64,000 bases of DNA from Chloroflexota bacterium (GTDB lineage Bacteria; Chloroflexota; Anaerolineae; JAAYZQ01), in assembly GCA_018606645.1 (NCBI GenBank), contig JAGVRI010000005.1, positions 50,629 through 114,628 of the forward strand, in the 5' to 3' direction. Shown in pieces: positions 9,988 to 53,266 of the stretch. Position numbers and translations under genes: made by a program. Numbering within the stretch: the first letter of the stretch is position 1; the number at the start of each line of letters is the position of its first letter. The notes below the pieces were generated by a model. The model ran no database searches. It saw only the letters and a list, made by a program, of their open reading frames with translations, and had not been told where the DNA came from.

Positions 9988-10602
9988 TCAGTTCCCTGCC
10001 AGAGGTTCTACTTCCATGATCACATGGTCCATTCGGACTGTCTGTCCCACAGCCGCCCGGATTTTCTTAACAATCCCCTCCCGGGGTGCCCGGATCACAT
10101 TCCGGGTCTTCATCGCTTCCAGGATGGCTACCCCGTCACCCGCTTTGACATTTTGGCCTTCTTGGACCAGGAATTCGACCAGCACCCCGGTCATAGGGCT
10201 GGTCACGGCACCAGCGCCGGCCTCCTCACGGCCTGGAACTCTGGGCCCGCCGAGAGTTGTCGCCGATATGGCCCGATCCTCTGGACGCCGTCGGTCCTCC
10301 CGCCTCAGCCCTTGCGGAATCCGCTCGCCGCTCACCCGGACCTCGTACCGATTCCCCTCGACGATCACCGTGTAGCCGTCTTCCCCAGGCTCCACCAGGA
10401 CCTCGTACGACCTGGGGCCGATCAACAACGAGAACAAGGATTCGCCAATGCGCTCCAGATGGGCGTCCCGTGGCTGATCGTTCACCATCACTCGGCCGTT
10501 TTGCTCGATGCGGATTCGATATTCCTCTCCGGCAAGAGTTGTAACATAGTTCACCGATCTCACGTCTCCTGTCATGTCTCTCACCCCATGGCTGCGGTCC
10601 AC
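9988..10602 (-). CDS. biotin carboxyl carrier protein (biotinyl domain)
   Basis: The C-terminus has the biotinylation motif (GDGVAILEAMKTRNVIRAP). The N-terminus has YRIRIE/YEVRV beta-hairpin repeats typical of small BCCPs. The true start may be the internal ATG at 10575. Confidence 0.8.
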   Translation of the reverse strand: MDRSHGVRDMTGDVRSVNYVTTLAGEEYRIRIEQNGRVMVNDQPRDAHLERIGESLFSLLIGPRSYEVLVEPGEDGYTVIVEGNRYEVRVSGERIPQGLRREDRRRPEDRAISATTLGGPRVPGREEAGAGAVTSPMTGVLVEFLVQEGQNVKAGDGVAILEAMKTRNVIRAPREGIVKKIRAAVGQTVRMDHVIMEVEPLAGN

Positions 10603-10611
10603 TTCTCATCA

Positions 10612-13600
10612 CTAACCGGGGATGATCCCACAGCGTCGTTCAATTCTCTTGGCCTCTCTGAGGCTGTAGAATTCGAGGCGGGCAATTAACTCATCCCGCA
10701 GTTGGGTGGCCGGAATGATCGCCTCAAAGAAGAACTCGCTGGCCATTGCGTAGGGATCGATATTGTCCTCATACTCGTCTTGCTTCGCCTGAATGAACGC
10801 CGGACGCTCCTCGGGCGGCAATTCCATGATCTTGTTATAGTAAATGGCGTTGATGGCTGCGGCTGGCCCCATGAGGGCCGGCTTGGCCGTGGGCAGAGCA
10901 ATGACCGCATCGGGGTTAATGGGAGCGCCAGACATGGCCAGGTATCCGCCTCCATAGGCCTTGCGCACGATGACACAGATGCGGGGCACCGTGGATTCCG
11001 AGACGGCGTAGAGGAATTTGGCGCCGTGGCGGATAATACCCTGTCGCTCCACCTGAGTGCCGATCATAAAGCCGGCAATATCATTCAGGAACAGCAGCGG
11101 GATGTTGAAGGCGTTGCAGATCCAGATAAAACGGGCGGCCTTGTCGGCCGAATCGGGAAAGATGACCCCCGCTTTGATCAACGACTGATTGGCGAGGATG
11201 CCCACCGAACGACCTCCCAGCCGGGCCAACCCGGTGATCATCTCCGGCGCAAACAGCTTCTTGTACTCCCACCAACTGCCTTCGTCAATGATCGCCTCAA
11301 TGAACTCATACATGTCAAACGGGATGCTCTCCCGGCTGGGGACGATCTCTTCGATCGGCCGGCCGGGCGCCGGGTCCCGGGGTTCGACCATCGGCGGCTT
11401 CTCCCGCCAGTTTTGGGGAAAATAGGAGAGGTATTTGAGGGCCGCATCCATCGCTTCCTTGTCATCAGCGACGAGCATGTCCCCCAGCCCGCTGACCTCG
11501 CAGTGCATCCGCGCGCCGCCCATCTCCTCCATCGTCACCTTTTCGCCGATGGCCATTTCGGCCATGCGCGGCGATCCCATATACACCGTGGCATTCTTGT
11601 CCACCATGATGGTCACGTCGCACAGCGCCGGAACATACGCCGATCCAGCGGGGGAGGGACCAAAGAGGATGCAGATCTGAGGGATGCGTCCGGAGAAGAT
11701 GATCTGGTTATAGAAGATATTGCCCCACGCATCCCGTCCTGCGTAGCAGTGGTGCTGGTCGTCAATGCGTGCTCCGGCGGAATCAATGAGATAGAGCAAC
11801 GGGATGCCCAGTTCGTCCGCCTTGCGCTGCATATAGGTCATCTTCTTGTAGCCAATCCGTCCCCAGGTCCCTGCCTTGACCGTCATGTCGTTGGCGATAA
11901 TGGCTACCTTCCGCCCCTCGATGGTGCCCAGACCGACGATCATTGCGTCGGCCGGCAGTCCCTCAGCGTAGCGGGCGAACAGCCCATCCTCTACAAAGGA
12001 GCCAGGATCCAACATGTATTCAATACGGTCCCGCACAAACATCTTGTTCTGTTCCGCGAGTTGTTTGTGGTACTTTTCCGGGCCGCCTTTATAGAGCGTC
12101 TCCATCCGCTGCAGAAGCTCCAGATGCTGAGGCGGTGGATTTTGGGATTGAGTCAGCGGCTTTTTTCTCGGCTCGGGACGCTCCTGGGGTTGGGCGGGCT
12201 GGATCTTTTCCATCCGTTCACCCTTCCTTTCACCGGCGGGGGATGGACCGGCCAGAACTTGTTGATGATGGACCAGCGTGGCAGTGAGAGCTGCGACTTC
12301 TTCCAGTTCTTTGCTTTCTACTCGGCTCAGCACAAAACTATCAAGAAACGAGGTATCATATACCCCTTGGACAAAGGACGGGGTCTCCATCACCTGCTGG
12401 TGGAACGGGATCGAGGTGGGGATGCCGACGATGACATATTCCCGCAACGCCCGACGCATCCGTCGGATGGCCTCCTCACGGCTATCTCCCCAGGCAATCA
12501 GCTTGGCCAGCAACGAGTCATAGTGGGGAGACACTTCGCAGCCCTCGTACAGGCCGCTGTCCACCCGAATTCCCGGACCACCGGGCTGGACCAAGGTCGT
12601 GATCCGGCCACTATGCGGAATGAAATCGTGAAAGGGGTCTTCGGCTGTGATCCGGCATTCGATGGCCCACCCCCGTGGCTGGATATCCGCTTGCTCGTAA
12701 CGCAACGGCTCCCCCGCCGCAATGCGGAGTTGTTCGACGACAATGTCCACCCCGGTCACACATTCTGTCACCGGGTGCTCTACCTGGAGCCGGGCGTTCA
12801 TCTCCAGGAAGTAGAAATTGCCCTCCTGATCCAGCAAGAACTCGACGGTCCCGGCGTTGACATACCCCGCGATCAATGCCGCACGCACCGCAATCTCTCC
12901 CATCCGGCTCCGTAGCTCGCTGTCTACGGTGGGGGAGGGGCATTCCTCGATCAGCTTCTGATGCCGTCGCTGGACCGAGCACTCCCGTTCCCCCAGGTAG
13001 ATGGCGTTGCCATGTCGGTCCACCAGAATCTGGACCTCGACATGATGGGGTTTCTGGATCGCTTTTTCCAGATAGACCCGGTCATCGCCAAAGGCGCTCA
13101 ATGCCTCGCCGCGAGCAGCGCCCAAGGTGCGGAGCAGCTCATCCTGGTTTTGAACCAGGCGCATGCCCCTGCCGCCTCCCCCGGCTGCGGCCTTGATAAA
13201 GAGCGGAAATCCGATACGATCGGCTTCGCTGACCAGTTCCTCATCACTCAGGTCTCGTTCCGTGCCGGGAACAATCGGCACTCCCGCCCGCTGCATGAGC
13301 TGCCGCGCCTTTACCTTGTCCCCCAGAGCGGCCATGGCCTGGGCGGGAGGGCCGATGAACACAATTCCTGCCTCCTCGCAGGCGGCAGCAAATTGGGGAT
13401 TCTCGGCCAGGAACCCATAGCCGGGATGAATGGCCTCCGCCCCGCTCTGGCGGGCGACCTCGATCAGCCGCTCGATGCGCAGATAACTCTCTCGAGCAGG
13501 GGCTGGACCGATATGGTAGCTCTCGTCGGCGTAACGGACGTGGAGCGCCGCCCGATCGGCGTCCGAATAGACCGCGACCGTCTGGACGCCCAACTCCCGG

Positions 13601-41593: not shown

Positions 41594-44224
41594 CTATCGT
41601 TGCGCGTTGGTGTGGTTCGTCCTGGCACTCTTCTGGGCCAGGAACCGGGCCACAAAGGCCTTTTCCTCCTCCTCGGTATGGATTTCGCCATCGAGGCGTG
41701 CATCGCGCAGCGCACCAAGCACCTGGCTAAAGAGAGGCGAAGGTTTCAATCCCAGGCTCTTGAGGTATTCTCCGTCCACCACCGGTTGTACATGGCGCAA
41801 CTCCGTTTCATAGCGCCATAGTCGTTCCTGGACTCGCGGCGATGTCGTGCAAAGCCATTGGATCAAGACAGCCGAGGTGGAAAAGTGGCGAAGCAGGGCA
41901 TAGATCTCCCGGTTGGCAAGGTGAGGTTGATCCAGTTTCTCCTCCCGATCTCGCAGATCGAAAACCTGGCGAAGCAGCGTTAGATCGCTTCGGTAGATCT
42001 TCAGGCGATGGATCAACGTCTCCAATTCCGCCCGGCTTAGATGGTAGACCAGCAACGCCAAATAGAGGCCCGGCGGCGGGCGTCCGTTGCTGGTGGATGA
42101 GATCTCCCACCCGCCGCTGGCGATCGCCCGACGCAGTCGGCTAAACCGTTCCCGTGTCTCCTCCGTACAGAACAGACGGGGATGGATCTGGGTCAAAACC
42201 TTCAGGGCATCGAGTCGAAACAGGGCACGCTCGGGTTCTGGTTCGGACAGGATCAAATACAGCTCATGGCGGATCCGCTCCCCCGAGACGCGGGAAAGCA
42301 TCGGCAATGCGTTGTCAATCAACTCAGCCGTACGGGGTTCGATGACAAACCCCAGGCGCTGCTCAAAGCGGACGGCGCGCATAATCCGGGTGGGATCCTC
42401 GATGAAACTCAGGCTGTGCAGCACCCGGATCACGCCCTCCCTCAGGTCCTGCTCACCGCCGTAAAAGTCCAACAGCTCCCCGTAATGATCCGAATCCAGT
42501 CGGATGGCCAGGGTATTGATCGTAAAGTCCCGGCGATGGAGATCGGCCTTGATCGAACTCCGTTCCACTTCCGGCAAGGCAGCCGAGTGAGCATAGAACT
42601 CCATCCGGGCGGTGGCGAAATCAAGGGACGACACACCAAACTCGTCTTCGCGGCCTTCGAGAACGATCTTGGCGGTGCCAAACTGTCGGTGGCTTCGAGT
42701 GCGCGCTCCCACCCGTCGGGCCACACGCCGAGCCAGTTCGATGGCATCGCCTTCGACGACCAGGTCCATGTCCAGAGTCGGCTGACCCAGCAACAGATCG
42801 CGGACAAACCCGCCCACCACATACAACGGATACCCCATCTCCTGGGCCAGTGCGCTGGCTTGCTGGAGTAGATTCAACAGCGGACCAGGGAGAGCCTCTT
42901 CGATCTTTTGAGTAATTTCCCGCCGGCGCGAGGGCCGGTAGGGTTCTGCCGCCCATAGCTTGATCAGGTCGGTGCGGGTCACCACACCGATGATCTCGTC
43001 ATCCTGGACGACCGGTACCTGACCCACGCCATAGCGGGTCATCACCTGTTGGAGTCGCTCCAACGAATCGGTGGGCAGGACATGAATGTTCCCCTTGGTC
43101 ATGTAATGACTGACCGGCATGTGGCCCAGTCGCAAACGTGCGGCGCGGTCGATCTCGCGACGGGAGAGGATGCCCACGATCTTGCCGGCGTTATCCACCA
43201 CCGGGAACCCCTCAAATCCATAGCGGAGCATCGCCTCCATCGCCTCGTCGACCGTGGTGTCCGGCGAGAGGGTATGGACGCCGTAGGACATAATCTGAGC
43301 CACTGTCTGAGTCGGACGAATATGCTGCGCCAAGATTTCCAGGAGCTCCTGCCGAACGGTCTCCAAATCCATGTCGCGGATCAAGGCCGCAGCCGCCCGC
43401 GTGTGCCCTCCTCCTCCAAAATGACCGGCGATTTGGCCGACGTCTATGGTGTCGGTCGTCGAGCGAGCGACCATCTGCAAATACTCGCCCAGGTCCACCA
43501 ACAGGAACAGACAGGATGGATCATACAGGTCTCGGATCTTGTGGGCCAGAGTGGAAATCTCTTCCACATACCCCTCGGCCACCGCCGAGGCGATCACGAT
43601 GGTATGTCCGGCCAACTCAAACACCTCGGCGCTGTCGAGTAACGTGTTGTAGAGATTCAGTTGCTGGTCTGTGAGCGGATAGTACAAAAAATCGCTGACC
43701 ACCGCCAGATTCGCGCCATTTTCGATCAGCCACGCCGTGCAGCGCAGATCGCGGGCGGTGGTGGTGGGATAGATCAGTGAACCGGTATCTTCATAGACGC
43801 CCAACGTCAACAGAGTCGCCTCTACTGGTGTTAGTGAAATCCGGTTCTCCACGATCTGCTCCACCAGCAGGGTCACCGTGGCACCTACCGCCTCGCCGGT
43901 ATAGCTCCAATGGGGTGGTAGATCGCGGCCCAGAGGATGGTGATCGATGATCTGGACGATGGTATTCTCGGTCATGCCTTTGGGCGTGACCAACGTCTGG
44001 GTATCGACCAGCGTCACCCGCTCCACCTCCACCCGGCGCGGCAAGTCTTCATACCGGATATACGGCAGTTCATCCCAATACAGGGTCAAGAAATCCCGAA
44101 GATTGCGATTCACGCGGCGAGACAGCACCGGCTTGGCCTGGGGATAGAGTTTCCAGGCAGCCAGTTGCGAGGCCAGGCCATCGAAATCGGTGTTTTCGTG
44201 GGTCAGTATCAGATGCACCCCCAT
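41594..44224 (-). CDS. multidomain DHH/DHHA1 phosphoesterase, CBS pair and tRNA-nucleotidyltransferase/poly(A)-polymerase protein
   Basis: 876 aa. N-terminal DHH motif (LILTHENTDFDGLAS), two CBS domains (the second begins ...VSHYMTKGNIHVLPTDSLE), and a C-terminal Pol-beta NTase head (YVVGGFVRDLLLG ... DFTINTLA). Confidence 0.8.
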   Translation of the reverse strand: MGVHLILTHENTDFDGLASQLAAWKLYPQAKPVLSRRVNRNLRDFLTLYWDELPYIRYEDLPRRVEVERVTLVDTQTLVTPKGMTENTIVQIIDHHPLGRDLPPHWSYTGEAVGATVTLLVEQIVENRISLTPVEATLLTLGVYEDTGSLIYPTTTARDLRCTAWLIENGANLAVVSDFLYYPLTDQQLNLYNTLLDSAEVFELAGHTIVIASAVAEGYVEEISTLAHKIRDLYDPSCLFLLVDLGEYLQMVARSTTDTIDVGQIAGHFGGGGHTRAAAALIRDMDLETVRQELLEILAQHIRPTQTVAQIMSYGVHTLSPDTTVDEAMEAMLRYGFEGFPVVDNAGKIVGILSRREIDRAARLRLGHMPVSHYMTKGNIHVLPTDSLERLQQVMTRYGVGQVPVVQDDEIIGVVTRTDLIKLWAAEPYRPSRRREITQKIEEALPGPLLNLLQQASALAQEMGYPLYVVGGFVRDLLLGQPTLDMDLVVEGDAIELARRVARRVGARTRSHRQFGTAKIVLEGREDEFGVSSLDFATARMEFYAHSAALPEVERSSIKADLHRRDFTINTLAIRLDSDHYGELLDFYGGEQDLREGVIRVLHSLSFIEDPTRIMRAVRFEQRLGFVIEPRTAELIDNALPMLSRVSGERIRHELYLILSEPEPERALFRLDALKVLTQIHPRLFCTEETRERFSRLRRAIASGGWEISSTSNGRPPPGLYLALLVYHLSRAELETLIHRLKIYRSDLTLLRQVFDLRDREEKLDQPHLANREIYALLRHFSTSAVLIQWLCTTSPRVQERLWRYETELRHVQPVVDGEYLKSLGLKPSPLFSQVLGALRDARLDGEIHTEEEEKAFVARFLAQKSARTNHTNAQR

Positions 44225-44773: not shown

Positions 44774-46129
44774 GTGCACAATGAAGGCGATGCCGATCTC
44801 GTGGTTCTCGGCGGCGGCCTGGCTGGTCTGACCTTCGCTTGGGAAGCGGGTCATCGTGGCCGGCAGGTTTCCATTCTGGAGTGTCAACCGCAGGTCGGCG
44901 GGTTGGCCCGGACGTTGGTCTTCAACGGCTACCGTTTCGATCTGGGCGGCCACCGTTTTGTGAGCGCCTGGCCGGAGGTCACCCAGTGGGTGCAAGAAGT
45001 GATGGCCGACGACCTGGTGTCAGTAGTTCGACGCAGCCGTATCCATTTGGGTGGACGGTATGTCGATTATCCCCTGCAGTTCCCCAATGCGTTCACTGCG
45101 TTCAGCTTCCCCCAGGCCATCCGCATCCTGGCCAGCTATCTGTACGCTTCCCTGCGACGGAACGATCAGCCCGATATCTCGTTCGAAGATTGGGTGGTGC
45201 GTCGTTTCGGGCGAGGGCTGTACGACATCTACTTCCGCCCCTACACTGAGAAGGTATGGGGCATACCCTGCGCTGAATTGTCGGCGGACTGGGCCAGTCA
45301 ACGCATCCAGTTGCCCAGCCTGACGGCTGCGGTCCGCAGCAGCCTCTTCCGCCAGCAGTCCCCTCCGGCCACTCTCGTCTCGCGTTTCCTCTACCCCACC
45401 CTGGGCATCGGCTCGTTGCCGGAACGGATCGTTGCTCAGGCCCAGGCCACTGGTCGCGTCACCCTCCATCTAAACAGTACCGTTGAACGCCTGGAGCCGG
45501 ATGGCAGGGCGTGGCGCGTCTACTACCGGCAGGATGGTCAGGAGAGTACAATCGCTGGACGGCAAGTCATCTCCACCATTCCCCTGGACACGCTCGTGCG
45601 CGCGTTGCCGCTGGGCGATGGCGTCGCCGAACTCAGCCGCGCGCTGGCCTACCGGGGAATCATTTGCGTCCTGTTAGCCGTAGACGGCCCCCGGATCAGC
45701 CAGGATACCTGGACCTACTTCCCGGATCACCGCCTGATCTTTGGTCGCATCCATGAACCAGTGAACTGGAGCCGCCTGATGGCTCCGCCGGGCAAGACCT
45801 CGCTCTGCCTGGAGATCTTTTCTTCGGAAGGCGATGGCGTCTGGCAGGAAACTGACGAGCGGTTGGTGGATTGCGCTCTGGCAGACCTGAACCGGCTGAG
45901 GTTATTGACCCCGGACCGCGTCGAGGCAGCGTGGGTGACGCGGGTGACCCATGCCTACCCTATCTACCGGGTGGGCTACGCCCGGGTCCTGCGCCAGGCG
46001 CGAGAATTGATCGCCCGCTGGCCCACGCTGCACCTGTTGGGACGCACCGGCGAGTTCGAGTACCTGAACATGGACGCGGTGATCCTTCGAGCATTGCGCC
46101 TGGCGGATCGATTGGCCGATGATCGCTGA
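44774..46129 (+). CDS. FAD-dependent oxidoreductase (amine-oxidase / protoporphyrinogen-oxidase / UDP-galactopyranose-mutase-like fold)
   Basis: DLVVLGGGLAGLTFA...ILECQPQVGGLART dinucleotide-binding motif. 451 aa. The GTG start is inferred. Confidence 0.7.
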   Translation: MHNEGDADLVVLGGGLAGLTFAWEAGHRGRQVSILECQPQVGGLARTLVFNGYRFDLGGHRFVSAWPEVTQWVQEVMADDLVSVVRRSRIHLGGRYVDYPLQFPNAFTAFSFPQAIRILASYLYASLRRNDQPDISFEDWVVRRFGRGLYDIYFRPYTEKVWGIPCAELSADWASQRIQLPSLTAAVRSSLFRQQSPPATLVSRFLYPTLGIGSLPERIVAQAQATGRVTLHLNSTVERLEPDGRAWRVYYRQDGQESTIAGRQVISTIPLDTLVRALPLGDGVAELSRALAYRGIICVLLAVDGPRISQDTWTYFPDHRLIFGRIHEPVNWSRLMAPPGKTSLCLEIFSSEGDGVWQETDERLVDCALADLNRLRLLTPDRVEAAWVTRVTHAYPIYRVGYARVLRQARELIARWPTLHLLGRTGEFEYLNMDAVILRALRLADRLADDR

Positions 46130-47570
46130 AACGCAGATCGCCCTGCGTAACTCCGGCTGGGTGCTCGCCCAGCAGGCAGCCCAGATGGTCAGCGGCCTGT
46201 TGTTTGCCATGTTGGTGGTGCGACTGATGGGGCCGGAGATGTACGGGCGTTATGCCGTCTTGACCGCCCTGCTGGTCTGGTTCTTTCTCCTCGGCGGGTT
46301 GGGCTTTAACCAGGTGATCGCCCGCTATGTGCCAGAGTATCGCCTCGCCGACGATGCAGACGGACTGGCCCGTTTCCTGGGCGGTGTGTTAGGCATCCGC
46401 CTGCTGAGCGCCGTCGGGGCTGCTGCCGTGTATCTCACCCTGACTCGACTCTGGTTGCGCGACCTGGACCCGGTGACACTGATGCTGATGGCCGGTGCGC
46501 TGTGCCTGCGCTGTATTTCCCAGTTCTTTTACTCCCTGTTTTTGGGACTTAACCGCGCCGGGCGGTGGGGCATGAATCAGGTTCTCCGCGAATGGGTGAC
46601 GCTGGGGCTCATTATCCCTGGCGTGCGCTGGCTGGGCCTGCGCGGTGCGGGCTGGGCGTTGCTGGGTACAGAGATCATAGTGTTGTTCGTAGCCCTGGTC
46701 TGGGCGCGCTCGCATCTGTGCGGCCTGCGCCTGGGTCTAAATGCGTCGGCCCATCTGCGCTTTGCACTGATCTTCTTTGCCGGCAGTGTGCTCTTGACCG
46801 CTTTTCAATACAGCGGCGAACCCCTGGTGCGCGCCCTGTCGCTCGACTACACCCAGGTGGCCTATTTCGGGCTGGCGTACAATATTTACCTGACTATTTC
46901 GGCGGCGATGGGGCAATTGACCCACTCCTTCGTGCCGTGGTGGACGGCGCTATGGACGCGGGGTCACAGCCAGGACCTCCAGGTGTGGGTTGAGCGGCTG
47001 GTCAAGTGGCTGGCCATTGGCGGCGTAGCGATGGTGATGGGCGTGTCATTCCTGGGCGAGGAGGCCGTCGTTCTGGTCTTTGGCGCGGCCTATCGCCCGG
47101 TCGCCGTCCACCTGATCCCATTGGCGCTGGCTACGGTGGCCCTGGCGTTGAGCTATGTTGCCTACACGCTGACAGCGGTGTGCGAAAGGCCCGAGGTGGC
47201 ATGGTGGGCATCGGCCCTGCGGGCGGCCAGTTTTTGGGCGCTGGGCATCCCGCTGATCGCCTGGAAGGGCAGCCTGGGTGGGTGCATCGCCGTCCTGGCG
47301 GCCGTGTCGCTGCACGCTGCCTACCTCACCATAGAGATGCGCCGGGCGGCGCTGCCATATTCACTGCGCCCTTGGGGGCTGGCGGTCGCCCTGGGCGCGA
47401 TCTTTTGGCCGCTGGGCTGGCTGCGCGTCTCATGGACCGTCCGCGCGGTGCTGTGTGGCGCCGCCCTGATCGGGTACGCCGGTCTACTCCTGGCGGTGCG
47501 ACTGGTCACACCGGTCGAGCTGCGCACCGTCTGGCAAACCGTTCGCAGAAGAGAGGAGGGAGGCGCATGA
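46119..47570 (+). CDS. polysaccharide/oligosaccharide flippase (Wzx-like, MOP superfamily)
   Basis: 483 aa with about 12-14 predicted TM helices. The N-terminus LRNSGWVLAQQAAQMVSGLLFAMLVVRLMGPEMYGRYAV is typical of Wzx/RfbX. Confidence 0.7.
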   Translation: MIAETQIALRNSGWVLAQQAAQMVSGLLFAMLVVRLMGPEMYGRYAVLTALLVWFFLLGGLGFNQVIARYVPEYRLADDADGLARFLGGVLGIRLLSAVGAAAVYLTLTRLWLRDLDPVTLMLMAGALCLRCISQFFYSLFLGLNRAGRWGMNQVLREWVTLGLIIPGVRWLGLRGAGWALLGTEIIVLFVALVWARSHLCGLRLGLNASAHLRFALIFFAGSVLLTAFQYSGEPLVRALSLDYTQVAYFGLAYNIYLTISAAMGQLTHSFVPWWTALWTRGHSQDLQVWVERLVKWLAIGGVAMVMGVSFLGEEAVVLVFGAAYRPVAVHLIPLALATVALALSYVAYTLTAVCERPEVAWWASALRAASFWALGIPLIAWKGSLGGCIAVLAAVSLHAAYLTIEMRRAALPYSLRPWGLAVALGAIFWPLGWLRVSWTVRAVLCGAALIGYAGLLLAVRLVTPVELRTVWQTVRRREEGGA

Positions 47571-48928
47571 TCGCGGCCCGTCTATATGGGAGTGTGTATC
47601 TGGCAGTTCACCTGCGCGGCCAGGCGGGGTACCCGTTCCGGCCGCTGGCGGCCATCGAACGCGATCGGGATCGTCGCGTGCGGGCGATGGTCGCCTATGC
47701 GTACCGTCTTGTGCCTTATTACCGCGAGACAATGGACCGCCTGGGCCTGCGCCCGGCCGATTTTCGCACTGCTGCTGACCTGGCCCGCCTCCCCATCCTG
47801 GAACGGGATCAGCTCCAGCGCGACCCGGAGTATTTTGTGTCCACCGCGCAACCGCTGGACCGCTACCTGCGGCTGCGCAGCGGCGGTAGCACTGGCGCGC
47901 CGCGCACCATCTACCACGACGTGCGGGCTTTGCTCCAGAATCGGGCGCACGCTGAACGGGAAAGCCCGATCATCGCCCGGTTTGTCGGCCGGCGCTGGGG
48001 CTACCGCATGGCATCTGTCGGCTCCCCGCTCAGTTCCGGACAGGAGATCGGCCGGTTTTTGGGCGCGCGATCCTTCACCCCGCCCAGCTTGAGGATTGAG
48101 CGCCAGGCCCTGTCGCTGTTCGACCCGCCCGAAGAGAATGTGCGCCGGATCAATGTGCTGCGGCCGGATATCCTGCACAGCTATGGCTCCTACCTGGAGG
48201 TCCTGTTCGGATACCTGCATGCTTCCGGTGAATCGTTTCACCGTCCGAAGCTGATCACGTACACCTCGGATGGCATGTCCGATTCGGTCAGGCGCCTGAT
48301 CGAACAGGAATTCCACATTCCGGTGCTGAGCACCTACCAGGCTATCGAGGCGCTTCGGATCGCGTTTGAGTGTGAGCAGCACCTGGGCCTGCATCTGAAC
48401 GTGGACCTGTACCCGCTGCGCATCGTGGATGAGAACGGGCGGGATCGACCGCTCGGCGAGAGCGGCGACATCGTGATCTCGAACCTGGTCAACCGCGCCA
48501 CCGTGTTGCTCAACTATCGCCTGGGCGATGTGGCCACGCTGAGGGCGGACCGGTGTCCCTGCGGCCGGTCGCTGCCATTGCTCTCCTTCCCCGAAGGACG
48601 CAGCGATGACCTGATCCAACTACCCGGAGGCGGCGTGATGCATCCTCAGGCAATCCGTATTATCTTTACCCACGAGCCCCAGGTCTGGCAGTACCAGGTC
48701 ATGCAAGAGACGGCAACCCGCTTCCGTATCGCCATCGTCGCCTCCCCCTCCTGCGATCGCGCCCAGACGAGCGTCCGGGTGCGGGAGGGATTCATCCGCA
48801 CCTTTGGATCGGAGATTCAAGTGGAGATCGAGTTTGTGGATTCGATCCCCCGCACCCGGGGCGGCAAGGTGCGTCCGGTCCTCTCGCTGTGCCAACAGTC
48901 GGCGCTCTCCGGACAAGACCATGGTTAG
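47567..48928 (+). CDS. CapK-like / coenzyme F390 synthetase-like adenylate-forming enzyme (phenylacetate-CoA ligase family)
   Basis: RSGGSTGAPRTIYHD P-loop-like AMP-binding motif and the PaaK/F390-synthetase architecture. The ATG at 47567 is preceded by GAGGAGGGAGG and overlaps the flippase stop (ATGA). The longer ORF from 47006 was rejected. Confidence 0.7.
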   Translation: MIAARLYGSVYLAVHLRGQAGYPFRPLAAIERDRDRRVRAMVAYAYRLVPYYRETMDRLGLRPADFRTAADLARLPILERDQLQRDPEYFVSTAQPLDRYLRLRSGGSTGAPRTIYHDVRALLQNRAHAERESPIIARFVGRRWGYRMASVGSPLSSGQEIGRFLGARSFTPPSLRIERQALSLFDPPEENVRRINVLRPDILHSYGSYLEVLFGYLHASGESFHRPKLITYTSDGMSDSVRRLIEQEFHIPVLSTYQAIEALRIAFECEQHLGLHLNVDLYPLRIVDENGRDRPLGESGDIVISNLVNRATVLLNYRLGDVATLRADRCPCGRSLPLLSFPEGRSDDLIQLPGGGVMHPQAIRIIFTHEPQVWQYQVMQETATRFRIAIVASPSCDRAQTSVRVREGFIRTFGSEIQVEIEFVDSIPRTRGGKVRPVLSLCQQSALSGQDHG

Positions 48929-50357
48929 GTCGTGGTCCCGTCTCTTGCGACGCGCCACCGAGGTCCTGCGCACCGAGGGTCTGCGGAGTTTTTTCTTCAA
49001 GGTGCTGGGCGAGACGGTGTACCGTCGGGTGGTGGTGGTAGAGCGCGACCTGAGCCAGCCGCCGCCCGTGGTACAGGCCCGCCTGCCGGTAAGTATCGTC
49101 CGACTCTGCGACAGCGAGATAGAAGAATATGTGGCCTTTCGACCAGAGACCGACGCCGCCGAGGTGCGCCGGCGTCTTCAGGCCGGACAGGTCTGCTGGC
49201 TGGTCCGGTATGAGGGGCGCATCGTCCACTCCTGCTGGGTGACCACTGGCCGCGCCTGGATCGAGTACCTGGGCTGGGACGTCGCATTGCCTCCGGACAC
49301 AGCCTACTCGTACGAGTCCTTTACCGCTCCCGAGTTGCGCGGACAGAACCTCGCTGTGGCGCGTTCGGTGGTGATGCAACAGGCGCTCCGCCAGGCTGGA
49401 TATCGGCGGGCGGTGGCGGTTATCATGCCGGAGAACCGGGCCGGCTTTTATCCAGCAGAAAAAGCCGGGTATCGTCGCGTTGGAGTGATGGGCTATCTGC
49501 GGATCGGCCCGTGGCGGTGGACCTTTGGCCGGGATGCCTTCTACCGGCCCATCCGCACCGACGAGCCGGCCTATTGGGATCAGGTGGCGCGGCGAAGCAG
49601 GGAGCGCCCCCCCTACCTCGACCCGTTCCTCGGCGAGCTCAAGCGGCAGGCGCACCTGGCGCTCATTCGCCGCTGGGGTGGCCTGACCGATGCCGGCTGG
49701 GTGATGAAGACGGACCTTTATGAAGAGGCGACCGGCCCCGATGCCTTTCTACCCGACCTGGAGGGAGAGCGACGGCGATTGCTGGGCATCGACCTCTCGC
49801 CGGTCATCGTCCAGGAGGCTCAGCGCCGCCATTCATCCACGGCAGCGCATTATGTGGTGGCCGATGTGCGCCGTTTGCCCCTGGCCGACCGAACGATCGC
49901 CTGCATCGTATCGCCTTCCACCTTGGACCATTTCCCCGACCCCGCCGACCTGGGCCGCAGCCTGAGCGAACTGCGCCGGGTCCTGGCGACCAGCGGCCGG
50001 CTGATCGTGACCGTGGACAATCGGCAGAACATCCTGGACCCGCTGCTGCGCCTGATCGCCCGACTGGGGCGGGCGCCCTATTACCTGGGCCGATCCTATC
50101 GCATCGGCGAGTTGGTTCGCGCGCTGGAGGCAGCGGGGTTAACGGTGCGCGACACGACCGCCATCCTTCACAATCCCCGCCTGATGGCCACGGCGGCGGT
50201 GGCGGTGGCCGACCGACTGCGCTGGCCGCAGTTCCGCAACGTGGTGCAGCGTGCCCTGATCGCAGCTCAGCGGCTGGAAGGGACGCGGTGGCAATACCTG
50301 ACCGGAAGCTTTATCGCCGCACTGGCCATCCGCAGCGCCTCGGCGGAGGAGAGGTGA
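48921..50357 (+). CDS. bifunctional GNAT-family N-acyltransferase / class I SAM-dependent methyltransferase fusion
   Basis: The N-terminal ~200 aa are GNAT-like (VRYEGRIVHSCWV ... QAGYRRAVAVIMPENRAGFYPAEKAGYRRVG). The C-terminal ~230 aa are a type-11 MTase (LLGIDLSPVIVQEA, VADVRRLPLADRTIACIVS, LATSGRLIVTV). The start at MVRSW overlaps the upstream stop. Confidence 0.65.
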   Translation: MVRSWSRLLRRATEVLRTEGLRSFFFKVLGETVYRRVVVVERDLSQPPPVVQARLPVSIVRLCDSEIEEYVAFRPETDAAEVRRRLQAGQVCWLVRYEGRIVHSCWVTTGRAWIEYLGWDVALPPDTAYSYESFTAPELRGQNLAVARSVVMQQALRQAGYRRAVAVIMPENRAGFYPAEKAGYRRVGVMGYLRIGPWRWTFGRDAFYRPIRTDEPAYWDQVARRSRERPPYLDPFLGELKRQAHLALIRRWGGLTDAGWVMKTDLYEEATGPDAFLPDLEGERRRLLGIDLSPVIVQEAQRRHSSTAAHYVVADVRRLPLADRTIACIVSPSTLDHFPDPADLGRSLSELRRVLATSGRLIVTVDNRQNILDPLLRLIARLGRAPYYLGRSYRIGELVRALEAAGLTVRDTTAILHNPRLMATAAVAVADRLRWPQFRNVVQRALIAAQRLEGTRWQYLTGSFIAALAIRSASAEER

Positions 50358-53266
50358 TCAAACTCTCGGTCATCATCCCCGTCCATAACGGCGGCGAGGA
50401 TTTTCGACGCTGTCTTGTTGCGCTGGCGGCCTCCTTCCGTCCGCCGGATGAGCTGATTGTGGTGGATGATGGCTCTAGCGATGGTTCGGGCGACGTAGCG
50501 CGACAGTTCGGCGCGCATGTTGTACGGATCGAGGGGGCGCCGCGCGGCCCCGCCTTTGCCCGCAATCGCGGCGCCGAGTGCGCCCACGGCGATCTACTGG
50601 TGTTCCTGGATGCCGACGTGGCCGTCCACCCTGACACCCTGGCGCAGATCGAGCAGTCCTGGAAGGACCACCCGGAACTGGACGCACTGTTCGCCTCGTA
50701 CGACGCCGACCCGCCGGCCCGTGGACTGGCGACGCGCTACAAGAACCTGCTCCACCATTATGTACATCAGCATGGCAGCCGGGAGGCCTCCACTTTCTGG
50801 GCCGGCTGCGGCGCCATCGACCGTCAGGTATTTGCGGCGCTAGGCGGCTTTGACGAACGCTACACTCGGCCGGCGGTTGAGGACATCGAGCTTGGCCTCC
50901 GGCTGAAACGGGCAGGATACCGCGTCGGGCTGTGCCCTGAGATCCAGGTCACGCATCTCAAACGATGGACCCTGGCCAGTCTGATCCGCACCGATATCTG
51001 CAACCGGGCCGTTCCCTGGACGCAGCTCATCCTCCAGCATGGTCACCTCCCGGATGACCTGAACCTGACCATCCGCAGTCGCTGGAGCGCGCTGGCCGCC
51101 TGGGTGGCGGCGATCGGTCTGTTCCTCGGCTTTGGCTGGCCCACGGCCTGGCTCGGTGCCCTGGCCGGCACCGTTGCCTTGATCGCGCTGAACGCTGACC
51201 TGTACCGCTTCTTCTACCAACGGGGAGGACCAGGCTTTGCGGTCGGCGCAACAGGGTTACATGCCCTCTATCTGCTGTACAGCAGTCTGGTGTTTGGCCT
51301 CATGGCGGTCGCCCACGGCCGCGCCGGCCTAGTCAAGTGTTGGCGACGGCTGGCTCCCGCCCGGCGCGCCCTGGTAGGATTGCTGGCGCTGACGCTGGTC
51401 AAGGGATGGTTGTGGAGTATCATCGTCCCGGTCTGGCTGGGCGGCGATGAAGATCAACATTTTGGTTACGTCCAGGAGTTCACCCGTCAGCGCGCCTGGC
51501 CGGTCCAGCCACCAGAGATGGTCCCCCGGGAGAGGGCATTGCTCTGGGAGTTGCTCCGCCCCGTTGCCATCTCGGTGCAACGCGAGCCGTTTGATTTCTC
51601 TCCATCCGGGCTGAGTCAAATCCAGGCGCTGAGGCGCCAACTGGACACGCCGGCGGCGCGCACTGAACTCGTGCCCACCTTCTCGATGCCCTATTTCATC
51701 CGCCAGCATCCGCCCCTGTACTATACCCTGCTGGCCCCCGTCCACCACCTGGGGGTCGAACGCAGCATTCTGGTGCGCATCGCCTGGATGCGGCTTGTTT
51801 CGGTGCTGATGGCAGTGGCGACCGTGGGCTGCGCCTATGGCGCAGCCCACACGCTCTGGCCAGATCGACCGTGGTTTCCCTGCACCGTGGCCACACTGGT
51901 GAGTTTCCATCCCCTGTTCACCTTTTACACGGCGATCATCGGCAACGCAGCGTTGGAAATGCTGGACTGGGCTGCGTTCACGTGGCTGGCCGCTATCATC
52001 GTTCGCCGCGGGATGAATGGACGACGAGGGCTGGCGCTCGGTGGGGTCATGGCCGCCGGGTTGCTGACCCGGAGCAGTTTTCTCGCCGCCTGGCTGTTGT
52101 TCCTGGTCCTAGGGGGATGGGATATCCTGCGGGCGAAAGGGCGCTTCCATTGGCAAGGGTGGGCGGCGGCGATAGGAACGCCGGTGTTGCTGGCCGGGTG
52201 GTGGTACCTGGACTTGATATCCACTGGCGGCGGCGAGATGGTCGAACTCTACCGTTCCTCGGACGCATCCGTAACGGCGGTGCCGCTACTGCCCTACTTG
52301 CGCACCTACCCCTGGCTGACCCGCTATCGGCCGCTCTTGCGCGAATGGTGGGGGGCCTTTGGCTTCCGGGATACCTACTATCCCCTTCCCATGTACGGCC
52401 TCCTGGAGTTGCTGACGGGGCTGGCCCTCGTGGGTTGGGGGTGGTTGGGTCTGCGGCTGCTGCAGCGCAAGAGGGTGAGCAGCGGCGACCGGTGGATGCT
52501 GGCCATCGGCGTCATTTCGACGGTGGGCCTGATCGCCTTTTACACGGCGCTGGACTACCGGATGGCCCAGAGCGGGAGTTGGTTCAAGATCCAAGGGCGT
52601 TACTATCTCGCACCCGTCATAGCCCAGATGGCCGCCCTGGCCGTGGGCTGGCGGGCCTGGGGGCGCCGGTGGATGGTGCTGGCGATGTGTGTAGGCATGA
52701 TCGGGCTGAACAGCTACGCCCTGGCGGGCGTGATCGCGCCGCGCTACTATGGTGAGCAGATCGTGGTGCGCTATGAGCCGACCGGGGACCCAGCGTCGCT
52801 TGTCCCCGGGTTGACCGTTTCCCGGACTTTTGAGTTGGAAGGGAAGGGCTTGTCGCGCCTGGATATCTGGTTGAGCCGGGAAAAAGAAGCCGCGCCGGAG
52901 GCAACGGTGATCGTGGTAGAAAACGGGCAGGAGGTCGTTCGCCTGTCCATCGCGGCATCGCAGATGACGGCTCCCTACCCCACTGTGCTGCGCTTCCGAC
53001 CTCAGCCAGAAGGGAGCCATCGGTACACAGTGGAGGTGCGTGGCAGTGGGACGAAAGTAGCTCGATCTGAAGACGGGCAGTTGGCGCTCAAAGCCTACTA
53101 CCAGGTTCCCCCTCTGGAGATGCTGACACGAATGACGATCATCCAGCCGGCCGGTTACACCGTCGGCCTGATCGTGGTGCTGGGCAGCCTCTACCTGTTG
53201 GGGTTGGCAGCGTGGCTCTGGGCCTTTCTGGCTGGTGGCCTCTTGCAGAGGCGATCCGATGGATAG
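50354..53266 (+). CDS. glycosyltransferase family 2 (GT-A) domain fused to a large polytopic membrane domain (GT-C/ArnT/PMT-like) with a C-terminal extracytoplasmic domain
   Basis: The GTG start overlaps the upstream stop (GTGA). The N-terminus has LSVIIPVHNGGEDFRRCL ... VVDDGSSDGS ... LVFLDADV, i.e. a GT2 DxD. More than 15 hydrophobic helices follow (residues about 230-800), then a ~150-aa soluble domain and a final TM. Confidence 0.7.
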   Translation: MIKLSVIIPVHNGGEDFRRCLVALAASFRPPDELIVVDDGSSDGSGDVARQFGAHVVRIEGAPRGPAFARNRGAECAHGDLLVFLDADVAVHPDTLAQIEQSWKDHPELDALFASYDADPPARGLATRYKNLLHHYVHQHGSREASTFWAGCGAIDRQVFAALGGFDERYTRPAVEDIELGLRLKRAGYRVGLCPEIQVTHLKRWTLASLIRTDICNRAVPWTQLILQHGHLPDDLNLTIRSRWSALAAWVAAIGLFLGFGWPTAWLGALAGTVALIALNADLYRFFYQRGGPGFAVGATGLHALYLLYSSLVFGLMAVAHGRAGLVKCWRRLAPARRALVGLLALTLVKGWLWSIIVPVWLGGDEDQHFGYVQEFTRQRAWPVQPPEMVPRERALLWELLRPVAISVQREPFDFSPSGLSQIQALRRQLDTPAARTELVPTFSMPYFIRQHPPLYYTLLAPVHHLGVERSILVRIAWMRLVSVLMAVATVGCAYGAAHTLWPDRPWFPCTVATLVSFHPLFTFYTAIIGNAALEMLDWAAFTWLAAIIVRRGMNGRRGLALGGVMAAGLLTRSSFLAAWLLFLVLGGWDILRAKGRFHWQGWAAAIGTPVLLAGWWYLDLISTGGGEMVELYRSSDASVTAVPLLPYLRTYPWLTRYRPLLREWWGAFGFRDTYYPLPMYGLLELLTGLALVGWGWLGLRLLQRKRVSSGDRWMLAIGVISTVGLIAFYTALDYRMAQSGSWFKIQGRYYLAPVIAQMAALAVGWRAWGRRWMVLAMCVGMIGLNSYALAGVIAPRYYGEQIVVRYEPTGDPASLVPGLTVSRTFELEGKGLSRLDIWLSREKEAAPEATVIVVENGQEVVRLSIAASQMTAPYPTVLRFRPQPEGSHRYTVEVRGSGTKVARSEDGQLALKAYYQVPPLEMLTRMTIIQPAGYTVGLIVVLGSLYLLGLAAWLWAFLAGGLLQRRSDG

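Follow-up and report, generated by a model that had tools for sequence, protein, structure and literature searches.

In pathways of the ArnC/ArnT and GtrB/GtrC type, the jobs at the inner and the outer face of the membrane are normally encoded by separate neighbouring genes. Can one polypeptide hold both? This question is raised by a gene at positions 50354–53266 of a 64,000-nucleotide stretch of DNA (hereafter the window) from a Chloroflexota bacterium (assembly GCA_018606645.1, contig JAGVRI010000005.1, positions 50,629 to 114,628 of the forward strand). An earlier note on the window, made from the letters, had proposed that the single 970-residue product joins a family 2 glycosyltransferase (GT2) of the GT-A fold to a polytopic transferase of the GT-C type. 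We found that the fusion is genuine, that its N-terminal part is a GT2 and that its membrane half is GT-C-like in predicted structure. With slightly more than even confidence, we favour the view that the protein is a two-faced glycosyltransferase, in which the cytoplasmic and the extracytoplasmic catalysts of Wzx-dependent lipid-carrier glycosylation would be joined in one polypeptide.

The gene lies in an open reading frame (ORF) that runs without interruption from 50288 to 53266 on the forward strand. Coding was assigned from GTG 50354 to 53266, comprising 970 codons and a stop. The GTG is preceded by a GGAGGAG ribosome-binding site (50345–50351) and shares the sequence GTGA with the stop codon (TGA) of the upstream methyltransferase gene; both features and the N-termini of homologues favour this start, and the start of the long ORF at 50288 was rejected. 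The product is identical to database protein P0001, to which gene callers likewise assign 970 amino acids, and because hundreds of homologues exist, the coding reality of the ORF is beyond chance. The three motifs quoted in the earlier note (LSVIIPVHNGG, DDGSSDGS and FLDADV) were all found in the translation.

An AlphaFold2 model of the full-length protein, built with 26 homologues in the alignment, was confident (mean predicted local distance difference test score, pLDDT, 87.2). From the N- to the C-terminus it comprises a GT-A domain (residues 1–205), an interfacial helix (207–229), hydrophobic helices (240–259, 265–291 and 293–332), a Lys/Arg-rich linker (323–338), a helical bundle (335–799), an all-beta region (801–917), a short helix and a final transmembrane (TM) helix. 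The corresponding features of the window are:

50354..53266, + strand: whole fused gene (ORF, ribosome-binding site, start/stop overlap, gene calls)
50354..50968, + strand: GT-A catalytic domain, residues 1–205 (PF00535/PF13641/PF13632, invariant residues, fold pattern of the model, Foldseek)
50969..51319, + strand: membrane part of the GT2 module, residues 206–322 (model, hydropathy, alignment, stand-alone GT2 proteins)
51320..51367, + strand: junction between the modules, residues 323–338, RAGLVKCWRRLAPARR (predicted cytoplasmic; matches the stop/start overlap of locus L004)
51368..52750, + strand: GT-C core, residues 339–799, divergent DUF2142/PMT_2-like, 11 TM helices (Foldseek, invariant columns, relatives' models, loop charge)
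52751..53104, + strand: predicted extracytoplasmic beta-sandwich resembling a carbohydrate-binding module (CBM), residues 800–917 (all-beta in both models, Foldseek)
53105..53263, + strand: short helix 920–929 and terminal helix TM12, residues 937–961 (model, hydropathy, loop charge)

Is the fusion real, or do we look at two genes joined by a sequencing or assembly error, a missed stop codon or a frameshift? A split form does exist. In locus L004, a 650-amino acid membrane protein (PMT_2) is preceded by a separate 327-amino acid GT2 with a gene overlap of 4 bp, so a single-base error could fuse such genes, and the homologue in L005 looks frameshifted near its 3' end. However, a word-indexed search with the membrane module returned 46 proteins, about 25 of which are GT2-membrane fusions of 845–1004 amino acids with 46–62% identity. 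They come from many different samples and assemblers, and from Chloroflexi or Anaerolineales wherever a source is named. Eight further full-length representatives, in which the match starts at residue ~300–340, emerged when 1.84 billion representatives were scanned exhaustively with HMMER; P0006 is fused, and all of the other seven, when checked, carried the same GT2. Among the GTDB genomes (best match 46% identical to the 970-residue protein), fused single ORFs occur in metagenome-assembled genomes (MAGs) of two phyla, an Ardenticatenales and an Armatimonadetes, and other lineages hold adjacent GT2-then-GT-C gene pairs. The junction RAGLVKCWRRLAPARR itself, with six Lys/Arg and no acidic residues, forms a linker of conserved length that is predicted to be cytoplasmic. 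An artefact, the frameshift that the earlier note had considered included, is therefore hardly credible.

The halves of the fusion also adjoin as separate genes in relatives. Stand-alone GT2s with 62–69% identity are neighbours of PMT/PMT_2 GT-C genes and may precede or follow them, and the GT2 of L004 is 60% identical to residues 1–315, membrane helices included. The L004 pair thus places the domain boundary at about residues 320–338. Judged from these sequences, the fusion appears to have arisen when the stop codon that separated two translationally coupled genes was lost. In L005 (8001–10427), the homologue P0016 (808 amino acids) is followed by an overlapping ORF of 166 amino acids (10366–10866) which would supply the rest of the C-terminal domain; a frameshift in that assembly is the probable cause, not a naturally shorter form.

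The identity of the N-terminal part as a GT2 rests on Pfam, structure comparison and intact motifs. PF00535 matched residues 5–161 with E 1.5e-24 and 87.3 bits, far above its curated cut-off of 23.3, PF13641 matched over residues 4–212 and PF13632 over 83–281. Foldseek comparison of the full-length model returned GT-A structures only, the best being PcManGT (6yv7, E 6.5e-10). In an alignment of 25 close GT2 homologues, the catalytic motifs are invariant:

residues 38–39, + strand: D38/D39 of the GT-A domain (invariant)
50609–50617, + strand: DxD motif D86-A-D88 (invariant)
50882–50884, + strand: putative general base D177 in VEDIELG (E176-D177 invariant)
residues 201–205, + strand: H201-L-K-R-W205, a QxxRW-like motif (H201-L-K-x-W205 invariant)

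The same holds for N131, H134, H135 and H138 of a His-rich helix. By its position, D177 would correspond to the residue that inverting GT-A enzymes use as general base; an Asp of this kind is typically seen where GT-A enzymes glycosylate a hydroxyl group of the acceptor (PMC12595478).

Residues 206–322 belong to the GT2 half, because stand-alone GT2 proteins of ~330 amino acids contain them. Besides the interfacial helix 207–229, this part holds the hydrophobic helices 240–259, 265–279/281–291 and 293–332, with N280, L283, G291 and G292 invariant. In the third hydrophobic helix (293–332; 51230–51350), L302, Y306, Y309, S311 and F314 are invariant and H303 is nearly so. More than 7,600 relatives of residues 1–320 were found at E<=1e-10, and the best 120 of them are all stand-alone proteins of 324–374 amino acids with 60–72% identity and 90–100% query coverage. 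By sequence, the GT2 module thus belongs to an abundant, strongly conserved subfamily. In NCBIfam, the EpsD, MftF and TIGR04283 models span the whole GT2 domain with E ~1e-28 to 1e-25, all below their cut-offs.

The membrane half was harder to place. Residues 281–970 matched nothing in Pfam (at E<=10) or NCBIfam. When PDB sequences were searched with the membrane module, by phmmer and by profile hmmsearch, no meaningful match emerged; the only return, an SLC15 segment, was judged spurious. Since GT-A matches swamped the Foldseek search of the full-length model, residues 330–970 were modelled alone (pLDDT 86.3, predicted template modelling score 0.90). Significant PDB matches of the helical membrane module were then exclusively GT-C enzymes: EmbC (7bvh, 3.9e-6), Pmt4 (9i5k, 7.1e-5, TM-scores 0.41/0.51), EmbA/B (3.4e-4) and ArnT (5ezm/5f15, 4.2e-4), followed by AglB/STT3, ALG9, ALG12 and Pmt1-Pmt2. 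The positions that carry this assignment are:

residues 358–471, + strand: predicted external loop 1, holding D365-E366, H369 and H452-P-P-L-Y-Y457
51446–51451, + strand: acidic pair D365-E366 directly after TM1 (invariant in the family alignment)
51707–51724, + strand: HPPLYY motif H452-P-P-L-Y-Y457 (H452-P-P-x-Y456 invariant in the family alignment)
residues 624–677, + strand: second long external loop, predicted, with W654, W666, F669 and G670
R749-Y750, + strand: predicted outer loop after TM9 (conserved columns)

Even among distant relatives with 20–28% identity, D365 is invariant, and E366, H369, P454, Y456, R480, F669-G670-W671 and R749-Y750 are conserved in at least 90%. PMT/ArnT-type GT-C enzymes are marked by a pair of acidic residues in their first luminal loop and by a PMT_2 region that opens with 'hPPLY'.

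In Pfam, 16 of 24 aligned relatives of the membrane module matched PMT_2 (best E 8e-14), 14 matched DUF2142 and six matched PMT. The 970-residue protein itself has no match to DUF2142 (PF09913) or PMT_2 (PF13231, CAZy GT39/GT83-like) even at E<=10, and its family link is transitive: the fused relatives P0048, P0055, P0086, L013 and L014 exceed the DUF2142 cut-off of 30.1 bits over the whole profile (38.9–61.4 bits) and lie at 30–46% identity to the query (E 1e-28 to 1e-72 for the three P proteins; 44–46% identity for L013 and L014). This relationship supports the GT-C assignment, because work on the cell-wall polysaccharide pathways of lactococci regards DUF2142 proteins themselves as transferases or polymerases of the GT-C fold (PMC12599335, PMC10821137). 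The concern voiced in the earlier note, that the module might be only a DUF2142 or anchor domain, thus loses its force: it appears to be a divergent DUF2142, a family itself treated as GT-C, and its relatives co-match PMT_2 and PMT. In the model, then, the polytopic module has a GT-C fold, and transferase activity is predicted. The HMMER scan yielded 1,814 relatives of the membrane module, 403 of them at E<=1e-10; most are stand-alone proteins of 450–550 amino acids matching residues 337–801.

The C-terminal soluble domain of ~150 amino acids described in the earlier note exists, yet is smaller than stated (beta-rich residues ~800–917, about 120–137 amino acids). Foldseek matched it to CBM35, CBM6 and the carbohydrate-binding domains of BcsB (E 2e-3 to 1e-2), and by family coverage in the HMMER scan it is present in a subset of the family only. 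The last TM helix that had been proposed behind it was placed at residues 937–961, within a helix that runs to 968 in the model.

We derived the topology from AlphaFold helices, hydropathy and loop charge. Loops 323–338, 551–558, 592–600, 702–712 and 766–773 and the C-terminus (QRRSDG) are positively charged and hence inside, so that the chain returns to the cytoplasm, while the long loops 358–471 (with D365/E366) and 624–677 and the beta-domain fall outside. The outside location of D365/E366 is thus predicted from loop charges. With 12 TM helices in the C-terminal module (11 core, one terminal) and two or three membrane helices in the GT2 module, the protein is polytopic, as the earlier note had stated, and its count of more than 15 TM helices comes down to ~14–15. 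If the GT-A domain and linker 323–338 are both cytoplasmic, helix 293–332 is not a simple TM helix and may instead bind lipid as an interfacial or re-entrant element.

The genomic context provided the link to a pathway. The fused gene is the last of a five-gene operon with overlapping junctions, preceded by:

44774..46129, + strand: flavin adenine dinucleotide (FAD) protein, full-length homologue of UDP-galactopyranose mutase (UGM), operon gene 1 (PDB, Pfam Amino_oxidase/NAD_binding_8)
46119..47570, + strand: Wzx-type flippase for lipid-linked sugar, multidrug/oligosaccharidyl-lipid/polysaccharide (MOP) superfamily, Polysacc_synt (PF01943 E 3e-14, gene call)
47567..48928, + strand: CapK/PaaK-like adenylate-forming ligase (PF27533 CapK_C; NCBIfam DVU_1553 family 5.8e-32; PDB 4r1l 1.6e-22)
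48921..50357, + strand: S-adenosylmethionine-dependent methyltransferase (fold in the C-terminal half; NCBIfam DVU_1556 family 6.5e-8)

For the ligase, a start at GTG 47006, which would overlap the Wzx gene by 565 nucleotides, is probably spurious; gene callers place it at 47567 with an overlap of 4 bp. The N-terminal ~240 amino acids of the methyltransferase could be assigned to no family. The DVU_1553/DVU_1556 pairing matched by these two proteins takes its name from a Desulfovibrio cluster of unknown role, and ligase and methyltransferase are kept beside the fused homologue in L009. Family searches of the operon genes revealed no glycosyltransferase besides the fused gene and no phosphoglycosyltransferase; the same was found for the loci L006 and L008. 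The flanks are unrelated: upstream lies a gene of the CCA/poly(A)-polymerase type, and downstream follow a LacI regulator and a sugar ATP-binding cassette transporter. The protein of 876 amino acids encoded at 41594–44224 (- strand) unites DHH/DHHA1, a pair of CBS domains, and a poly(A)-polymerase/CCA-adding head together with the RNA-binding domain of that head.

The UGM homologue is of the eukaryote type (Trypanosoma cruzi 4dsg, E 1e-32 over residues 9–442; Aspergillus fumigatus 3ute, E 4e-26). It recurs at L006:1740-3161, L008:484-1854, L010:402-1844 and L011:8027-9817, and its recurrence beside the GT2 subfamily suggests a furanose sugar in the pathway. Wzx recurs in L002, L004, L006, L008, L010 and L012. 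Across the 11 loci inspected, Wzx accompanies the GT-C or fusion gene in seven and a UGM homologue is present in five, and the set of GT2, flippase and GT-C is found again in L004, L006, L008, L010 and L012. Gene orders differ: UGM, GT4, Wzx, an unknown gene, GT2, GT2 and GT-C in L010; GT4, DUF2079, Wzx, GT-C and GT2 in L012; GT2 and then a UGM-like gene in L011. Two variations were noted on the side: a gene for a Glu/Leu/Phe/Val (ELFV) dehydrogenase that immediately precedes the fusion (L006:6793-8004, L008:6187-7398) and, in L006, a Wzx flippase fused to a methyltransferase (757 amino acids). In the Armatimonadetes MAG, a PAP2-family lipid phosphate phosphatase gene (L013:7783-9081) lies ~650 bp downstream of the fused GT2::DUF2142 gene; this single occurrence would fit recycling of a polyprenyl pyrophosphate carrier.

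How would such a protein work? Taking together the fusion, the two folds, the intact catalytic motifs, the split orthologues and the conserved gene set, we propose that the GT-A domain, held at the inner face by its own helices, would load a sugar from a nucleotide sugar, probably a hexofuranose supplied by the co-encoded UGM homologue, onto a polyprenyl-phosphate-based carrier. Wzx, encoded three genes upstream, would flip the lipid-linked sugar to the outer leaflet. There, the GT-C module with its putative catalytic Asp365/Glu366 would transfer it to an extracytoplasmic acceptor, an envelope glycan whose binding may be helped by the CBM-like beta-sandwich, and ligase and methyltransferase would modify either the sugar or the product. 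What we infer in this scheme are the carrier lipid, which sugar is moved, its acceptor and the sequence of events. The earlier note had envisaged direct channelling of the donor between the two catalysts. This is unsupported, because the active sites would lie on opposite membrane faces and the operon, like most related loci, encodes a Wzx flippase. Instead, the benefit of fusion is most likely 1:1 stoichiometry and co-localisation.

Several observations weigh against the two-faced reading. The GT2 was expected in the earlier note to be a polyprenyl-phosphate-sugar synthase of the ArnC/GtrB type, and this expectation found no support: bit scores fell far below the NCBIfam cut-offs (ArnC 22.8/529, PpgS 20.8/370, AglJ 22.6/325, Dol-P-hexose transferase 18.3/375), and these matches were confined to GT2 residues ~3–100, the nucleotide-binding portion. 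Likewise, a profile of the GT2 subfamily aligned with the solved DPMS/ArnC/GtrB structures only over positions 1–109 (5mlz), 2–94 (9bhc) and 1–89 (5ekp), although it covered PcManGT over positions 2–195 and, weakly, BcsA over 7–190 (E 8.8e-3). By sequence, the GT2 thus appears to lie outside the characterised synthase families of the DPM1/GtrB/ArnC/PpgS/AglJ type. Its best full-length match, PcManGT, is thought to act on a lipid-linked glycan, and Asp177 is conserved as in GT-A enzymes with hydroxyl acceptors. Loci with unfused pairs hold several further GT2/GT4 genes, which suggests an oligosaccharide donor there. Finally, the topology requires that the GT2 module cross the membrane an even number of times, yet it has three hydrophobic helices; of these, one is likely to be interfacial or re-entrant, and 293–332 is the probable candidate. 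Nevertheless, synthase-like traits are kept, namely juxtamembrane and TM helices (207–332) behind the GT-A domain and a gene near GT-C and flippase genes. Specificities of GT2 enzymes are hard to predict, and for this reason the synthase role could still apply.

Much of this would be accommodated if the GT2 were a PcManGT-like elongating transferase acting on an already initiated polyprenyl-(pyro)phosphate glycan, with the GT-C module as a WpsI/WpsJ-like polymerase or ligase for the oligosaccharide that Wzx has flipped, and the initiator encoded elsewhere; the logic of the pathway would stay unchanged. Beyond its nucleotide-binding half, the GT2 aligns with PcManGT and BcsA and nothing else, it keeps the general-base Asp177 (PMC12595478), unfused relatives reside in clusters with three to five other glycosyltransferases and Wzx, and for lactococcal DUF2142 proteins a role in polymerising or transferring Wzx-flipped oligosaccharides has been proposed (PMC12599335, PMC10821137). 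The PAP2 phosphatase after the fused gene in L013 is what one would expect if a pyrophosphate carrier were released. Yet the window operon, L006 and L008 lack any other glycosyltransferase and any phosphoglycosyltransferase. Moreover, the GT2 subfamily directly adjoins or fuses to GT-C, as a dedicated donor synthase would, and its layout of a GT-A domain with a C-terminal membrane hairpin in ~330 amino acids resembles GtrB-type synthases. We regard this, the chief alternative, as possible and rather doubtful. A further explanation takes the GT2 for a processive enzyme like cellulose or hyaluronan synthase, and the polytopic region for a translocation channel or anchor with no second catalyst. 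Its motifs do read like those of cellulose synthases (D, DxD, ED and HLKRW, with VED and HLKRW as variants of TED and QxxRW), PF13632 and, weakly, BcsA (E 8.8e-3) are matched, and PcManGT is described, in a title that PMC8993221 cites, as a minimal cellulose-synthase-like fold. But the polytopic module matches GT-C enzymes and not synthase channels, and carries an invariant acidic pair in external loop 1. Its family of ~1,800 cluster representatives is mostly stand-alone, the GT-C gene is found on either side of the GT2 gene, and a separate Wzx flippase is co-encoded. A processive synthase is accordingly most improbable.

Within the two-faced reading, a bolder version can be formulated. The GT2 subfamily, whose membrane helices have a conserved His/Tyr/Ser lining, might be an unrecognised class of polyprenyl-phosphate-sugar synthases outside the DPM1/GtrB/ArnC clade that makes a lipid-linked hexofuranose, for example polyprenyl-P-galactofuranose by way of the co-encoded UGM homologue. 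To our knowledge, this type of donor has not been described so far, and we consider the proposal speculative and unlikely as it stands. If true, each fused enzyme would work as a self-contained 'make-and-use' machine by which the Chloroflexota envelope is furanosylated extracytoplasmically, and its conserved GT2 helices would perhaps help to pass the lipid on.

Our literature searches found no paper describing a natural GT2::GT-C fusion; fusions named in the literature found were GacJ-GacI or engineered WpsB-WpsA. Cluster-member names read only 'glycosyltransferase', while some IMG annotations read 'GT2 family glycosyltransferase/4-amino-4-deoxy-L-arabinose transferase-like'; the architecture is thus already visible in databases but uncharacterised. 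Fusions of pathway partners are common. The five-gene set matches known Wzx-dependent extracytoplasmic glycosylation, so the fusion is a variant of a known pathway and overturns no paradigm. Its value is that of a 'Rosetta stone'. It ties an uncharacterised GT2 subfamily, comprising thousands of ~330-amino acid proteins in Chloroflexota, Acidobacteriota and others, to an uncharacterised DUF2142/PMT_2-type branch of GT-C (~1,800 cluster representatives), and places both in a Wzx-dependent pathway, often with a UGM homologue. Of moderate interest are the partnership of a non-DPM1-type GT2 with a GT-C and the recurrent UGM link, which raises a possible lipid-linked hexofuranose donor. A hypothesis that can be tested follows on how envelope glycans are decorated in monoderm-like phyla that have been little studied, and a single construct with both catalysts is suited to structural work on the inner-face/outer-face arrangement and to glycoengineering.

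Among known systems, GtrA/GtrB/GtrC and ArnC/ArnT share with the fused protein the succession of a cytoplasmic GT2 and an outer-face GT-C. ArnT is among the Foldseek matches, and GtrB resembles the GT2 module in size and in its C-terminal membrane hairpin. They differ in that the fused GT2 is not of the ArnC/GtrB family, the flippase is Wzx-type instead of GtrA or ArnE/F, and the catalysts are fused. PcManGT (Pcal_0481, PDB 6yv7-6yv9) likewise has a GT-A domain followed by membrane helices and is the only full-domain profile match of the GT2, but it is archaeal, stand-alone and ~21% identical to the GT2 module; it was assigned to N-glycan assembly, with its activity unconfirmed (PMC8993221). 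The mycobacterial EmbA/B/C and AftD combine a GT-C core with extracytoplasmic CBM-type domains and use a lipid-linked furanose donor, and EmbC (7bvh) was the top Foldseek match. In contrast to the fused protein, the Emb enzymes lack a GT2 domain, measure ~1,050–1,400 amino acids, have other TM counts and are only ~11–13% identical.

The closest parallels in gene content come from Gram-positive cell-wall polysaccharides, where a GT2, a flippase of the Wzx type and a GT-C act in four-component systems, in GacI/GacJ/GacK/GacL of Streptococcus pyogenes and in lactococcal WpsA/WpsB/WpsG/WpsJ (PMC10821137, PMC12599335). Both resemble the window in that genes for an inner-face GT2, a flippase of the Wzx type (MOP) and a transferase of the GT-C fold come together, and WpsI/WpsJ are DUF2142 proteins with ~11 TM helices, the Pfam family reached by relatives of our module. 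Here, however, GT2 and GT-C form one polypeptide, and the GT2 is not a homologue of the DPM1-like GacI/WpsA and brings its own membrane helices, so that no GacJ/WpsB partner is needed. Further tailoring genes are present (UGM homologue, PaaK/CapK-like ligase, methyltransferase), and the host belongs to the Chloroflexota. The three-component pentofuranose system of Citrobacter youngae O1/O2 consists of a PPPRS synthase, a flippase of the multidrug and toxic compound extrusion (MATE) type and a GT136 GT-C, whose C-terminal CBM binds the acceptor polysaccharide (PMC11127046). Its synthase is a UbiA-like enzyme dependent on phosphoribosyl pyrophosphate and not a GT2, its GT-C belongs to GT136 and its components are separate. 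This system adds a furanose from a polyprenyl-phosphate donor on the extracytoplasmic side, as we propose for the fused protein, and it shares with the window a MOP/MATE flippase and, probably, an auxiliary enzyme that sets the sugar. Both GT-C enzymes also carry a C-terminal beta-rich domain, a CBM in C. youngae and CBM-like in the fused protein, which adds a further TM helix behind it.

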